Of a DNA stretch of 64,000 nucleotides, positions 16,356 through 20,258 are shown in pieces. This stretch comes from Solirubrobacteraceae bacterium (lineage in GTDB: Bacteria; Actinomycetota; Thermoleophilia; Solirubrobacterales; Solirubrobacteraceae): assembly GCA_035567335.1 (NCBI GenBank), contig DATMPZ010000048.1, positions 7,020 through 71,019 of the forward strand, read 5' to 3'. Both the position numbers and the translations under genes were made by a program. Position 1 is the first letter of the stretch. Every line of letters starts with the position of its first letter. Under the pieces are notes generated by a model. It was not told the DNA's origin, made no database searches, and saw nothing but the letters and a program-made list of their open reading frames with translations.

Positions 16356-17209
16356 ACGGGGGCTCCGTGGCCGGTTACGGGGGTGAGGGCGTCAGGGGCG
16401 GTCGGGCTTTGACCGATCAAAGATCGGCCAGCATCCGCGCAGGCGGTTCCCGCTCGGCGCGGGTTGGCGCTGGCCGATCGGAGATCCCGTCGATCTCCGA
16501 TCGGTATCCGGCCCCGCATCAGCTCGGATCGCGAGACAGCCCGCGGGCGCCGGTGACAGGCGTCGGCGAAGTGGTCCGCCATGCGTGTCCGAAAGCCGTC
16601 CGGATCGATCGTGCGTCCGGAAGGAAGCTCGCGGGCGATCGAGGTCATCGTCACGTCCGGGAGACCGCAGGCGATCACCCACGAGAACGGCGCGAGATCG
16701 ACGTCGACGTTGACGGCGAATCCATGGGTGGCGATGCCGCGCGAGACGTGCACGCCGATCGAGGCGATCTTGCGGTCCTCCACCCACACGCCGGTATAGT
16801 CGGGTCCCTCTTCGCAACGCGAACGCGCCTTTACGCCGTAGCCGGCCAGCGCGGCAATGATCGCGGCTTCCATCGTGCGCAGATGCGCGCCGATGTCATC
16901 GACGCGCATGATCGGATAGCCGACCAGCTGGCCGGGACCGTGGTAGGTGACGCGCCCGCCGCGGTCTGTCTCGACGACCTCGATGCCACGCGCGCGGTAG
17001 AGGTCCTCGCCGAGCGTCAGCTCCCCCGGCGCCGAGCGCCGTCCGCGCGTGTAGACGGGCGGATGTTCGAGCAGCAGCAGCGTGTCTGGCAGCTCCCCGG
17101 TCAGCCGGAGTTCGCGGATGTGCAGTTGCAGGGCGAGCGCGTCGCGGTAGGAGGCCGTGCCCAGGTGGTGCACCCATAGCTCCGGTGAGGACGGTTTGGC
17201 TTCGATCAT
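16352..17209 (-). CDS. lipB: Lipoyl(octanoyl) transferase with a repeat-derived C-terminal extension
   Basis: LLLLEHPPVYTRG, DRGGRVTYHGPGQLVGYP, KIASIG, HGFAVN; start set at ATG 17209. Confidence 0.93.
   Translation of the reverse strand: MIEAKPSSPELWVHHLGTASYRDALALQLHIRELRLTGELPDTLLLLEHPPVYTRGRRSAPGELTLGEDLYRARGIEVVETDRGGRVTYHGPGQLVGYPIMRVDDIGAHLRTMEAAIIAALAGYGVKARSRCEEGPDYTGVWVEDRKIASIGVHVSRGIATHGFAVNVDVDLAPFSWVIACGLPDVTMTSIARELPSGRTIDPDGFRTRMADHFADACHRRPRAVSRSELMRGRIPIGDRRDLRSASANPRRAGTACADAGRSLIGQSPTAPDALTPVTGHGAPV
16411..16504. repeat. Composite of two inverted copies of the GATC palindromic element inside the lipB 3' end
   Basis: Full copy with a perfect 13-bp IR CCGATCGGAGATC/GATCTCCGATCGG at 16474-16504; shortened inverted copy at 16411-16432. 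Confidence 0.8.
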
Positions 17210-17286
17210 CGGCTGCAGTCTCAGGTTAGCGTCGGCCGAAGCGCTCGAAGACCTGGTGCGTTTTCGTCGTCCCATCATACGTTCGA

Positions 17287-17365
17287 TACACTATGACCTG
17301 CCAAGATGAGCGCTATTGAGTTGCTCATTCCGGGGTCCGGTTCGCCGGGCCCCGTCTTTGTTAAA
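17287..17365 (+). ncRNA. Putative antisense RNA, unit A (type I antitoxin-like)
   Basis: -10 TACACT 17287-17292; body GCCAAGATGAGCGCTATTGAGTTGCTCATT; hairpin CGGGGTCCGG-TTCG-CCGGGCCCCG 17331-17354 followed by TCTTTGTT. Confidence 0.55.
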
Positions 17366-17417
17366 CGTGCGTTCCGGCGGGCATCGGGCCCGACTCCCGC
17401 CGGAGCTGGGTTTGGCG

Positions 17418-17462
17418 CTACGTCTGGTTGCGGATGACCGCGACCAAAGCGCAATCGTCGCG
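17418..17462 (-). pseudogene. 3' remnant of a toxin-like peptide gene (unit A)
   Basis: Encodes ..VAVIRNQT-stop, paralogous to ..VAVIRSLR-stop of unit B; 5' part missing and 1-nt shift. Confidence 0.55.
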
Positions 17463-17570
17463 TTTGCGTCCCGTCATGCGTCCGGTACACTGGACGAGCC
17501 AAGATGAACTCAATGGAGTCGTTTATTCCATTGCCTCGGGGTCCGGCATGCCGGACCCCGGCTTCGTTTA
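17463..17570 (+). ncRNA. Putative antisense RNA, unit B (type I antitoxin-like), with its promoter
   Basis: TTTGCG-N17-TACACT (17463-17491); 17498-17531 complementary to codons 1-10 of the peptide mRNA; perfect palindrome CGGGGTCCGGCATGCCGGACCCCG 17537-17560 then GCTTCGTTT. Confidence 0.6.
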
Positions 17571-17621
17571 AAGGGCGCCCCGGCGGGCCCGAGGCCGACT
17601 CCCGCCGGAGCTTGGGTGGCG

Positions 17622-17690
17622 CTATCTCAGGCTGCGGATGACCGCGACCATGAGCGTAATCGCCAGAATGAACTCAACGGAGTAGTCCAT
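17622..17690 (-). CDS. 22-aa hydrophobic peptide, putative type I toxin (MDYSVEFILAITLMVAVIRSLR)
   Basis: Near-perfect SD AAAGGAGGTGA with GGAGG 7 nt before the ATG; single TM helix with basic C-end; paralogous remnant next door; 14-bp IR flanking the ORF. Confidence 0.7.
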   Translation of the reverse strand: MDYSVEFILAITLMVAVIRSLR

Positions 17691-17797
17691 CCCATCACCT
17701 CCTTTCCTGGGCCGGTCGGCCTCGGGCCGGCATGATCGGGCGGTGGGTGATAACCCGCCGACGAACCTACAGATCGCTTCGGGGATTCCTCCGAGGC

Positions 17798-19174
17798 TTA
17801 CAGCGTTAGCGAGGCGGGCTGTTCGAGCAGCTCGCGGATGCGCGCCAGGAAGCGCGCGGCGTCGGCGCCGTAGAGGATGCGGTGGTCGCAGGCCAGTGTG
17901 ACCGTCATCGTCTGACGCGCGGCGATCTCACCGTCCTCGCGCACGACGGGGCGGGGGCCGACAGAGCCAACCGCCAGGATCGCCGCCTGTGGCGGATTGA
18001 CGATCGCGGTGAACGCGCTGACGCCGAACATGCCGAGGTTGGAGACCGTGAACGTGCCGCCGCCGAGCTCGGGTGGCGTGATCGAGTGCTCGCGCACGCG
18101 CGAGGCCAGGGCGCGCGTCTCGCGGGCGATCTCGCCGAGCGACTTGGCGTCGGCGTCGAACACGGTCGGCACGATCAGCACGCCGCCGCTCGAGGGTCCG
18201 TCGGCCTCCACCGCGACGGCGATGCCGACGTTGACGCGCCCGTGCAACTGCAGACGCCCGTCGCGATAGCTGGAGTTCGCGCGCGGGTGCTCGCGCAGGG
18301 CCAGCGCGCAGGCCTTGACGACCATGTCGTTGTAGGTGGGTGCGTCCGCTTGGCCGAGGCGCTTGAGCTCGGAGCGCAGCGCGACGCACTCCTCCATGTC
18401 GATGTCGGCCTGGAGTGAGAAGTGGGGGATCGTGGCCTTCGACTCGGCCATGCGCCGGGCGATCGTCTGCTGGGTGCGCGAGAGCTCGATCTCGGTCGTC
18501 TCGCCGCGGGCCGTTGTCACACCCGCGAGCGCCGCTCCGGGCGACGAGCCGGCGGCCGCACCGGTGGTGGCCGTGTCTGCTACGCCGGATGGCCCGTCTG
18601 CGGCGTCGGCGGTCGTGCGGGGTGTCTCGGTGTGGACCGTCGAGGCGACCGCCTGGACGTCGGCCTTGACGATGCGCCCGCCCGGGCCCGTGCCGGTGAG
18701 CGCGTGCAGATCCACGTCGTTCTCCCGCGCGATGCGCCGCGCCAGCGGCGACGCCTTGACGCGCTTCTGGTTTGCCGTGGGGCTCGTCTCCGCCACCGGG
18801 CCCGGGATGGCCTCGCGGACGGCCTCGGCAGGTGTGGAGGGAGTAGCCGCACCAGACTGGCCGGCTGCAGCGACGGCGCCCTCGTTCGCATCCCCGCCGC
18901 CGGAGGTCACGTGCGCGTCCTGACCGCCCACGCCGGTCCCGTCGCCCGAGCCCACCTGCGCGATCACCGCGCCGACCGGCAGCGTGTCGCCCTCGGCGGC
19001 GACGATCTGAAGGACGCCGTCGAGGTCTGACTCGTAGGTCATGGTCGCCTTGTCGGTCTCGATCTCGACGATCTCCTGCCCGCGCCGCACCGGCTCGCCG
19101 TCGGCGGCGAGCCAGCGCAGGATCGTGCCCTCCTCCATCGTGTCGGACAGGCGCGGCATGACGATCTCGGCCAT
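17798..19174 (-). CDS. pdhC: Dihydrolipoamide acetyltransferase (E2)
   Basis: MAEIVMPRLSDTMEEG, lipoyl ETDKA, PSBD ASPLARRIA..GTGPGGRI, DHRILYG. Confidence 0.95.
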   Translation of the reverse strand: MAEIVMPRLSDTMEEGTILRWLAADGEPVRRGQEIVEIETDKATMTYESDLDGVLQIVAAEGDTLPVGAVIAQVGSGDGTGVGGQDAHVTSGGGDANEGAVAAAGQSGAATPSTPAEAVREAIPGPVAETSPTANQKRVKASPLARRIARENDVDLHALTGTGPGGRIVKADVQAVASTVHTETPRTTADAADGPSGVADTATTGAAAGSSPGAALAGVTTARGETTEIELSRTQQTIARRMAESKATIPHFSLQADIDMEECVALRSELKRLGQADAPTYNDMVVKACALALREHPRANSSYRDGRLQLHGRVNVGIAVAVEADGPSSGGVLIVPTVFDADAKSLGEIARETRALASRVREHSITPPELGGGTFTVSNLGMFGVSAFTAIVNPPQAAILAVGSVGPRPVVREDGEIAARQTMTVTLACDHRILYGADAARFLARIRELLEQPASLTL

Positions 19175-19233
19175 CAGCGCGTCTCTCCCGGAGTGAGACA
19201 CGCGCCCACGTAAAGGCCTGTGCGTCCGGCCAT
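19174..19233 (-). CDS. 19-aa bridging mini-ORF between pdhB and pdhC
   Basis: MAGRTGLYVGACLTPGETR; TGATG overlaps at both ends; CTGATGGCCG present at both junctions. Confidence 0.35.
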   Translation of the reverse strand: MAGRTGLYVGACLTPGETR

Positions 19234-20258
19234 CAGAGCCCCTCCTGCGCGGCGACGGGCGTGTCGGAGCCCTCGCCCCGCCCGAGTGTGGCCAGCGCGG
19301 CGGCCACCACCTGAGGCTCATGTGGAAATGCGATTTCCTCCAGCGGCTTGGAGTAGGGCATCGGCACGTCCGCGCCCGACACGCGTGCGACCGGGGCGTC
19401 GAGGTCATCGAAGGCGTGCTCGGCGATCAGCGCGGCGAGGTTCGCGCCGACGCCTCCGTGCGGCCAGCCCTCCTCGACGACGACGCAGCGGTTGGTGGTG
19501 TGCACGGAGGCGAGGATCGTGTCCAGGTCCAGCGGGCGCAGCGTACGCGGGTCGATCACCTCCGCCTGCACCCCGTGCTCGTCGGCGAGCGTGGTGGCCG
19601 CCCGTTCGGCGGTGAGCGCCATCCGCGAGACGCCGACGATCGTCACGTCCGAGCCCTCGCGGCAGACGCGCGCGCGGCCGAACTCGACGAGCGCGTCCTC
19701 GTCGTCTGCCACCTCTCCGCGGACGCCGTACAGCGACTCGTGCTCGATGAAGATGACCGGGTTCTCGTCGCGGATCGCCGTCTTCAACATGCCCTTGGCG
19801 TCGGCGGGCGTGGCGGGCACGGCGACGAGCAGGCCGGGGACGTGCAGGAACATCGCCTCCAGGCAGTGCGAGTGGGTCGGCCCGAGCTGGTGGCCGGCGC
19901 CCTGGGGCATGCGGATGACCAGCGGCACCGATACCTGGCCGCCGAACATGTAGCGGATGTGCGCGGCGTGGTTGACGATCTGGTCGAACGCGAGCAGCGA
20001 GAAGTTGATCGTCATCAGCTCGACCACGGGGCGCAGGCCGGTCATCGCCGCGCCGACGCCGATGCCGACGATCGTGTTCTCCGAGATCGGCGTGTCGCGC
20101 ACGCGCCGCTCCCCGAACTGCTCGAGCAGACCCTCGGTGACTTTGAACGCGCCCCCGAACACGCCGATGTCCTCGCCGAGCAGCACCACGCGCTCGTCGC
20201 GGCGCAGCTCCTCGCGCAGCGCCGCGTTCAGGGCTTCGCGATAGCGCAGCTCGCTCAC
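19233..20258 (-). CDS. pdhB: Pyruvate dehydrogenase E1 beta subunit
   Basis: LRYREALN, GEDIG, DTPISE, GPTHSH, IDPRTLRPLD; GTG start at 20258. Confidence 0.95.
   Translation of the reverse strand: MSELRYREALNAALREELRRDERVVLLGEDIGVFGGAFKVTEGLLEQFGERRVRDTPISENTIVGIGVGAAMTGLRPVVELMTINFSLLAFDQIVNHAAHIRYMFGGQVSVPLVIRMPQGAGHQLGPTHSHCLEAMFLHVPGLLVAVPATPADAKGMLKTAIRDENPVIFIEHESLYGVRGEVADDEDALVEFGRARVCREGSDVTIVGVSRMALTAERAATTLADEHGVQAEVIDPRTLRPLDLDTILASVHTTNRCVVVEEGWPHGGVGANLAALIAEHAFDDLDAPVARVSGADVPMPYSKPLEEIAFPHEPQVVAAALATLGRGEGSDTPVAAQEGL

Follow-up and report, generated by a model that had tools for sequence, protein, structure and literature searches.

In the type I toxin–antitoxin systems hok/Sok of plasmid R1 and AapA1/IsoA1 of Helicobacter pylori, complementarity between the 5′ and 3′ ends of the toxin mRNA could lock the full-length transcript, and local hairpins mask the translation start. 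Work on the role of 5′–3′ folding and 3′ processing in hok is among the references of PMC8594479. The par locus of pAD1 (Fst/RNA II) is characterized by convergent promoters, an RNA gene on the 3′ side of the toxin gene, a shared terminator and direct repeats read in opposite directions at the translation start (PMC7472228, PMC8594479), and in TxpA/RatA and BsrG/SR4 of Bacillus subtilis a convergent antisense RNA lies at the 3′ end of the toxin gene (PMC8594479). According to reviews and a 2025 paper (PMC12390103), every known type I system belongs to Proteobacteria, Firmicutes or Tenericutes, apart from one cyanobacterial candidate, MsoT1/MsoA1 of Microcystis aeruginosa, recently proposed beyond these three classical phyla (PMC12390103); literature searches returned no report of a type I system for Actinobacteria or Solirubrobacterales. 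The locus analysed here lies on a 64,000-nucleotide (nt) stretch of a Solirubrobacteraceae genome (assembly GCA_035567335.1, contig DATMPZ010000048.1), called ‘the window’ below, in the gap between the E2 gene of a 2-oxoacid dehydrogenase complex and lipB. It consists of a very short open reading frame (ORF) for a hydrophobic peptide and a predicted convergent antisense RNA. Judged from comparative sequence evidence, it is fairly probable that the locus is a chromosomal, par-like type I toxin–antitoxin-like module inserted at this site, and we read it as a candidate new family, the first in Actinomycetota.

The peptide gene, its mRNA and the small RNA

The complete unit of the locus, named unit B, comprises the following features, given in the direction of the minus strand.

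17764–17769, minus strand: putative −10 box TAGGTT of the peptide mRNA, about 30 nt past the E2 stop
17746–17751, minus strand: anti-Shine–Dalgarno (anti-SD) element AUCACC near the mRNA 5′ end, pairing with GGUGAU of the ribosome-binding site
17711–17731, minus strand: leader hairpin with stem GCCGG/CCGGC and loop CCCGAGGCCGA (RNAalifold; 92.5% paired)
17715–17728, minus strand: 5′ arm of a perfect 14-bp long-range inverted repeat, the exact reverse complement of 17586–17599
17695–17702, minus strand: Shine–Dalgarno (SD) sequence GGAGGUGA, with GGnGGUG invariant in 56 aligned loci
17666–17692, minus strand: start-codon hairpin, with AUG and codons 7–8 in its stem and the variable codons 2–6 as its loop (93.8% paired)
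17622–17690, minus strand: ORF of 22 codons encoding the hydrophobic peptide MDYSVEFILAITLMVAVIRSLR, the candidate toxin B (ORF list; 41 distinct homologous ORFs of the same length)
17586–17599, minus strand: 3′ arm of the 14-bp long-range inverted repeat, partner of 17715–17728
17577–17611, minus strand: conserved 3′ hairpin past the stop codon (99.2% paired); hairpin loop and leader loop are complementary
17536–17569, plus strand: terminator of small RNA B, an 11-bp G+C stem with a 4-nt loop and a T-run (terminator scan)
17498–17569, plus strand: predicted antisense small RNA B, about 72 nt with putative ends, its 5′ domain complementary to the SD, AUG and codons 1–10
17463–17491, plus strand: putative promoter of small RNA B, TTTGCG (17463–17468), a 17-nt spacer and TACACT (17486–17491)

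The ORF and SD that a first-pass annotation had seen on the minus strand are present in the sequence: GGAGGTGA at 17702–17695 precedes the ORF, with GGAGG 7 nt ahead of the ATG, and the predicted product has 22 residues, within the size limit of type I toxins (<60 residues), and a grand average of hydropathy of 1.28. Homologous peptides fall into two main subfamilies, type 1 with 22 residues and the pattern M-x5-[LF]-ILA-[IVM]-[AT]-L-[ML]-V-[AVT]-VIR-x2-[TR], and type 2 with 24 residues and the ending LVIDRLAR. Among 41 distinct type 1 ORFs, length is constant and the ATG invariant, and in type 2 the length is likewise fixed, at 24 codons. In 12 of the 13 core codons (7–19) of type 1 the second position never changes, and third positions vary. 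The ratio of nonsynonymous to synonymous polymorphism (pN/pS) is 0.26 for the type 1 core and 0.20 for the type 2 core, and reaches 0.63–0.77 in the fast-evolving codons 2–6. Coding-type conservation of this kind argues that the ORF is translated. An overlapping 23-codon GTG ORF (17698–17627) was rejected, as codon periodicity fits the 22-codon frame only. Upstream, a TAnnnT hexamer, mostly TAG[GC][CT]T, occurs at the position matching TAGGTT in all 58 loci of the alignment, and the peptide mRNA would start near 17757. Searches of Pfam and NCBIfam gave no family at E ≤ 10 (seven peptides were searched against Pfam), and exact look-up of eight peptides among 15 billion proteins found none. The PXXXG(C) motif occurs in 0 of 21 aligned peptides, in agreement with the earlier remark that the peptide has no Fst motif and was not recognised; a conserved Trp is lacking as well.

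The structure of the peptide mRNA was assessed by counting base pairs on 56 aligned mRNAs (alignment A2), with shuffles (n = 500) and slid registers as null. Five helices, namely the 5′ anti-SD helix, the leader hairpin, the AUG hairpin, the 3′ hairpin and the terminator stem, are together 93.2% paired, versus 87.0% in shuffled alignments (0 of 500 reach the observed value) and 35–51% in slid registers, and compensatory changes on both sides are seen in 21 pairs. The anti-SD helix is 89.7% paired and its pair 12–69 switches jointly from U–A (30) to C–G (16), covariation that supports the proposal of the first-pass annotation that leader ATCACC (17751–17746) can pair with the SD flank GGUGAU. 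Pair 36–48 of the leader hairpin is G–C in 21 sequences, A–U in 17 and unpaired in 16, pair 74–98 of the start-codon hairpin occurs as six pair types, and the 3′ hairpin has compensatory changes in 6 pairs. RNAalifold also offered a pairing of the SD with ORF columns 109–112; the anti-SD helix is preferred because it co-varies and those pairs do not, and the two could be alternative folds. Taken as single sequences, the 101-nt leader/start region (z −0.25) and the 3′ hairpin (z −1.3) fold no better than shuffles.

The two arms of the 14-bp inverted repeat are exact reverse complements, as had been claimed; the repeat search extends the match to 17 nt at 94%, and in the window this helix is the dominant element of the minimum-energy structure predicted for the full mRNA (−113.6 kcal/mol, z −3.5). 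As a family trait, however, the 14-bp helix was rejected: that length is specific to the window genome, and what stood of the proposed 5′–3′ long-range pairing is a loop-to-loop core of 6–10 nt in the other loci. On A2, the leader-loop/3′-loop contact is 85.9% paired versus 19–46% in slid registers, with one co-varying pair only. Divergent loci keep the 6–10-nt core with compensatory changes (CGAGGCCGAC/GUCGGCCUCG, CGGAGCCGA/UCGGCUCCG, CGGGGCCGAC/GUCGGCCCCG, and the further compensated pairs CGGGGUCGAC/GUCGACCCCG and CCGGGGCCGU/ACGGUCCCGG). The contact is probably real.

On the plus strand, the two promoter hexamers noted earlier are present, and a TAnnnT box stands 3–11 nt ahead of a conserved RNA 5′ end, GCCAAG (or GCTAG), in 57 of 58 loci. 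Small RNA B has a predicted fold of −33.9 kcal/mol (z −3.9). The family consensus is a short single-stranded 5′ end, a hairpin GAUGAGC/GCUCAUC with a variable loop, and the terminator; an anti-SD stretch, CAUCACCUC, is often found between the hairpin and the terminator. The palindrome 17537–17560, at which the RNA had been supposed to end, is a perfect 12+12 palindrome followed by a plus-strand T-run and scores as a terminator. The same hairpin is common to the 3′ end of the peptide mRNA, there without a U-run; averaged over the loci, 5.2 T follow the stem on the RNA strand versus 1.7 on the peptide strand, and the hairpin is a canonical terminator for the small RNA only. Indels in the RNA are not multiples of three and the RNA is therefore considered non-coding; the plus-strand ORFs that run through it were rejected, as these indels break every frame.

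The stretch 17498–17531 is a 78% direct repeat of 17662–17701 with a 5-nt insertion (the ‘bulge’ of the first description), so that the RNA is antisense to the SD, the ATG and codons 1–10. The predicted duplex between small RNA B and the peptide start region reaches −57.8 kcal/mol versus −18.1 ± 3.7 for shuffles. Across the family, cognate duplexes are stronger than non-cognate ones (type 1, −46.4 versus −31.8 kcal/mol; type 2, −40.1 versus −21.6 kcal/mol), and local alignment scores are higher with the own start region than with others (type 1, 17.8 versus 12.5; type 2, 16.6 versus 10.2), contrasts that overstate independence in that related loci share ancestry. The sequence of the repeat drifts, but the repeat itself is retained in both subfamilies and in the distant homologues. 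Judged from these comparisons, the 5′ domain of the small RNA co-evolves with the toxin start region; together with the conserved −10 box and the terminator, this supports the idea of a par-like convergent antisense RNA read across a direct repeat.

Duplication, distribution and decay

The region is a tandem duplication of a unit of about 205 nt, with 82% identity by direct alignment; Tandem Repeats Finder reported nothing, because units of 205 nt are too diverged and gapped. The description of the locus as ‘tandem’ thus holds for the duplication, but only unit B is intact, and unit A is reduced to an RNA, a 3′ hairpin and a toxin stub.

17418–17456, minus strand: toxin A remnant, the last 12 or so codons (..ALVAVIRNQT, stop) with a 1-nt deletion, fused to the RNA-B promoter
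17373–17407, minus strand: unit A copy of the 3′ hairpin (repeat search, unit alignment)
17299–17362, plus strand: predicted orphan antisense RNA of about 64 nt (small RNA A); own terminator at 17331–17354 (terminator scan)
17261–17292, plus strand: putative promoter of small RNA A, −10 box TACACT at 17287–17292 (sequence, unit alignment)

Small RNA A is 96% identical to the RNA of a sister genome and its fold (−31.5 kcal/mol, z −3.6) matches the family consensus; its predicted pairing with toxin B is weak, −25.4 kcal/mol versus −57.8 kcal/mol for RNA B. The sister genome has an intact unit-A peptide, MNEATQLILAIALLVAVIRNQT (loci L012/L029). Covariance model scores are 75 bits for unit A versus 173 for unit B. 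Unit A (17262–17468) is a decayed copy, and the window contains one intact pair (B) and one orphan RNA (A). At the junction of the units (17418–17470), the toxin-A stub, beginning at about codon 10, runs up to the −35 region of the putative promoter for RNA B. It seems that a B-type unit took the place of the leader and the first ten codons in an A-type toxin; recombination between the repeats may have brought this about.

A lack of conserved homologues had been put first among the grounds for abandoning the toxin–antitoxin idea; homologues were found by BLAST, by pattern scan and by covariance model, which removes that ground. BLAST detected the module in 35 of 200 congeneric genomes. An exact degenerate pattern of SD and leader matched 59 loci among 185,579 species scanned, which belong to soil metagenome-assembled genomes (MAGs) of Solirubrobacterales/Solirubrobacteraceae or to MAGs labelled only Actinomycetota. 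The mRNA covariance model (R1), a check that had been suggested from the start, was run on 146 high-quality genomes of the genus and found at least one locus in 50 of them, with 1–5 loci each in three score tiers. Outside the genus, divergent members occur in one other genus and two further families of the order, and in about 125 genomes from other orders of the class the only match above threshold was a false positive inside a permease gene. Covariance model hits that fell within ordinary coding genes (L117, L123) were discarded. The window genome itself has a second, divergent locus outside the window (G000:C45:43497-43668, plus strand; L120:1501-1672), which encodes MANTLNVLAIALLLAMLIIDRLAR and has a −10 box TAGAGT, an SD and a 3′ hairpin; a direct repeat of the start region follows downstream, and the model places this locus in a third score tier, common in the genus.

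Synteny, another check suggested at the outset, was found in nearly all carriers of type 1 modules, which sit between E2 and lipB, and type 2 modules lie in the murB–ftsQ gap or upstream of uvrA (L098:4390-4561, L082:3599-3771, L076:7592-7763, L109:4491-4663 and L053:1534-1706). Where congeners lack the module, E2 and lipB are separated by only about 15–30 nt, and the module is therefore an insertion that lipB does not need. An intact peptide gene is always accompanied by the repeat-bearing RNA element; the converse fails, since the RNA is kept alone in unit A of the window and in L016. In the latter (L016:1500-1600, genome G007), a promoter, a shortened 5′ domain and a terminator are found beside the E2 stop, with neither peptide gene nor leader. 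A broken toxin with its RNA retained is seen in unit A and in L043, and such a pattern, with the RNA outliving the toxin, is typical of toxin–antitoxin loci. The ORF is extended, frameshifted or prematurely stopped in several loci (L043, L073, L079) and is absent altogether from L063; the aberrant loci, which also include L107, count an ORF with an extra codon among them. Some damaged ORFs may be homopolymer errors of long-read MAG assemblies rather than real decay. The most distant homologue, L116:1501-1656 (genome G271, from another family of the order), encodes the peptide MTGATEFIVALIVLVVVASRID; it has no separate 3′ hairpin, and its terminator is flanked on either side by A- and T-runs, which makes it a truly bidirectional one like that of par.

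Around the locus, Pfam matches and ORFs give the minus-strand gene order E1 alpha, E1 beta, E2 (2-oxoacid dehydrogenase complex), a gap of about 590 nt that holds the module, lipB and lipA. The E2 stop is at 17798 and the likely lipB start is the ATG at 17209 (MIEAKPSS). Mechanically called ORFs are overlong at the 5′ end, both for lipB (308 aa; region 17209-17278) and for E2 (536 aa; region 19171-19408). The likely start of E2, that of the lipoyl domain, is close to 19174, and lipB in its longer frame would run across the putative promoter of RNA A. A short hairpin at 17776–17797 (CUUCGG..CCGAGG), between the E2 stop and the −10 box of the module, pairs well on the plus strand only, via a G–U pair. 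Rfam gave no significant match for the region (best score 20.9 bits, gathering score 50).

A possible mechanism and its rivals

If the module is a toxin–antitoxin pair, a minus-strand mRNA of about 225 nt would encode a 22-residue, single-helix membrane peptide, and would silence itself through the anti-SD helix, through the hairpin at the AUG and possibly through the 5′–3′ loop lock. A convergent plus-strand RNA of about 72 nt would be made from its own promoter, end at the T-tailed terminator and pair in trans over the SD, AUG and codons 1–10. This duplex would block ribosome binding and probably create a target for a double-strand RNase; an mRNA that reads through the shared hairpin would, in cis, also be fully complementary to the RNA there. 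Loss of the RNA would permit synthesis of a membrane-active peptide. Cleavage of the duplex and release of the peptide upon RNA loss are carried over from par (PMC7472228); the two transcripts with their ends, the toxicity of the peptide and its repression by the RNA are what we infer from sequence. The hairpin loops are formed by codons 2–6, whose rapid evolution keeps pace with that of the RNA, hence each pair would have a specificity of its own. An evenly balanced proposal is that the module follows a hybrid logic, in which par-like pairing in trans is combined with a hok/AapA1-like 5′–3′ loop lock, co-evolving loops insulate up to five paralogous pairs per genome, and the sites occupied are those of essential operons (2-oxoacid dehydrogenase/lipB, murB/ftsQ, uvrA).

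Several observations weigh against a toxin–antitoxin reading, or against parts of it. A consensus promoter scan of the region gave no sigma-70-like site, with the RNA-B promoter below threshold, so that the conserved −10 boxes are what the promoter assignments stand on. The terminator hairpin at the end of the mRNA has no U-run on the peptide strand, so that the mRNA 3′ end is only putative. The hydrophobic stretch, about 14–15 residues, is short for a membrane span. As for the leader-loop/3′-loop match, it has a central mismatch in five type 1 loci, and the chance background for such matches is high in G+C-rich DNA, with at least 9 bp in 5.8% of shuffles. Finally, the module was not found in the plasmid or phage collections searched, type 1 modules keep a syntenic position that looks like vertical inheritance, and the peptide gene is co-directional with housekeeping neighbours, essential ones, at all three sites.

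These last features also fit a non-toxic small membrane protein, e.g. an accessory or regulatory subunit, with a cis-encoded antisense RNA adjusting its synthesis, and purifying selection on the peptide is as expected from such a protein. This alternative is the one to be taken seriously, although its probability is clearly the smaller. It has to contend with the presence of the locus in only about one-third of the species of the genus, in 1–5 diverged copies per genome, with the occurrence of tandem and of decayed copies, the RNA persisting after the ORF is lost, with a fast specificity region that co-evolves with the RNA, with several layers of translational silencing and with the lack of a match to any known small-protein family. 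For these reasons, patchiness, decay, co-evolution, silencing and the absence of a family match, a selfish or toxin–antitoxin module fits better than a housekeeping subunit.

That the ORF is a leader peptide, part of an attenuator controlling transcription of lipB–lipA on the same strand, is very unlikely. Its position upstream of lipB, followed by strong hairpins of which that at 17536–17561 has no U-run on the lipB strand, so that read-through into lipB is possible, would suit an attenuator. Yet the terminator T-run is on the opposite strand, which has its own promoter, the core amino acid sequence is conserved, which is unexpected for a leader peptide, and the idea was rejected on the grounds that the module also occurs at murB–ftsQ and before uvrA and that congeners do without it. 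The weakest explanation, a gene-less, repeat-rich spacer in which ORF and pairings arose by chance, can draw on the many ORFs and hairpins of G+C-rich DNA and on single-sequence folds no better than shuffles, but is already contradicted by codon-periodic conservation over dozens of species, compensatory base-pair changes, cognate-specific complementarity and exact-pattern matches confined to one order among 185,579 species, and is thus hardly credible at all.

With the toxin–antitoxin reading retained as the preferred one, the comparative evidence is strong enough for direct design of experiments. For work on the evolution of antisense specificity, the family provides dozens of naturally occurring RNA pairs, both cognate and non-cognate, and it draws attention to genes that have gone unannotated within core operons of abundant soil bacteria.

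Comparison with described type I systems

The closest likeness is with par of pAD1. As in par and its relative SprA1/SprA1as, the promoters are convergent, here with conserved −10 boxes that face each other on the two strands. Again as in these systems, the small RNA maps to the 3′ side of the toxin mRNA, with which it shares a terminator hairpin; direct repeats read in opposite directions provide a second complementarity outside the overlap, covering the toxin translation start; an intramolecular element sequesters the SD; and the small peptide combines a single hydrophobic helix with a charged end. The differences are equally clear. The peptides have 22–25 residues, in contrast to the 33 of Fst, and are without the PXXXG/C motif (defined in PMC7472228), the conserved Trp or a Pfam/NCBIfam match; by its peptide, the locus falls outside the Fst family. 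One long repeat, running from the SD to codon 10, stands in place of DRa and DRb. The par terminator is bidirectional; here the hairpin is shared but has its T-run on the RNA strand only, with runs on both sides in L116. The hairpin loop, mostly UUCG, is unlikely to serve as a kissing site, and an extra conserved 3′ hairpin is present. Lastly, the locus is chromosomal and syntenic and belongs to an actinobacterium of high G+C content.

With hok and AapA1, the locus shares 5′–3′ complementarity within the mRNA and hairpins at the start region. It differs from hok in having no overlapping leader ORF (mok), and from hok/Sok in the position of the antisense RNA, which is not opposite the 5′ leader but encoded 3′ of the ORF. 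The peptide has no similarity to Hok or AapA in Pfam, and the 5′–3′ match is, in most loci, a loop-to-loop core of 6–10 nt. Ibs/Sib of Escherichia coli, with Ibs peptides of 18–19 residues, resembles the present family in its very short hydrophobic peptide and in its several diverged copies with cognate-specific RNAs, but Sib is fully antisense to the whole ibs ORF and there is no sequence similarity. TxpA/RatA and BsrG/SR4 likewise have a convergent antisense RNA at the 3′ end of a gene for a small hydrophobic peptide; they pair via a 3′ overlap that includes the 3′ part of the ORF, whereas the trans-acting repeat described here targets the translation start.

MsoT1/MsoA1 is unrelated in sequence and in phylum, and shows how narrow the known range of type I systems is. 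That narrowness may be real or an artefact of the searches, and a family found from its sequence alone in a fourth or fifth phylum has a bearing on the point: since its peptides are absent from 15 billion predicted proteins, the narrow range would reflect tiny ORFs left unannotated.

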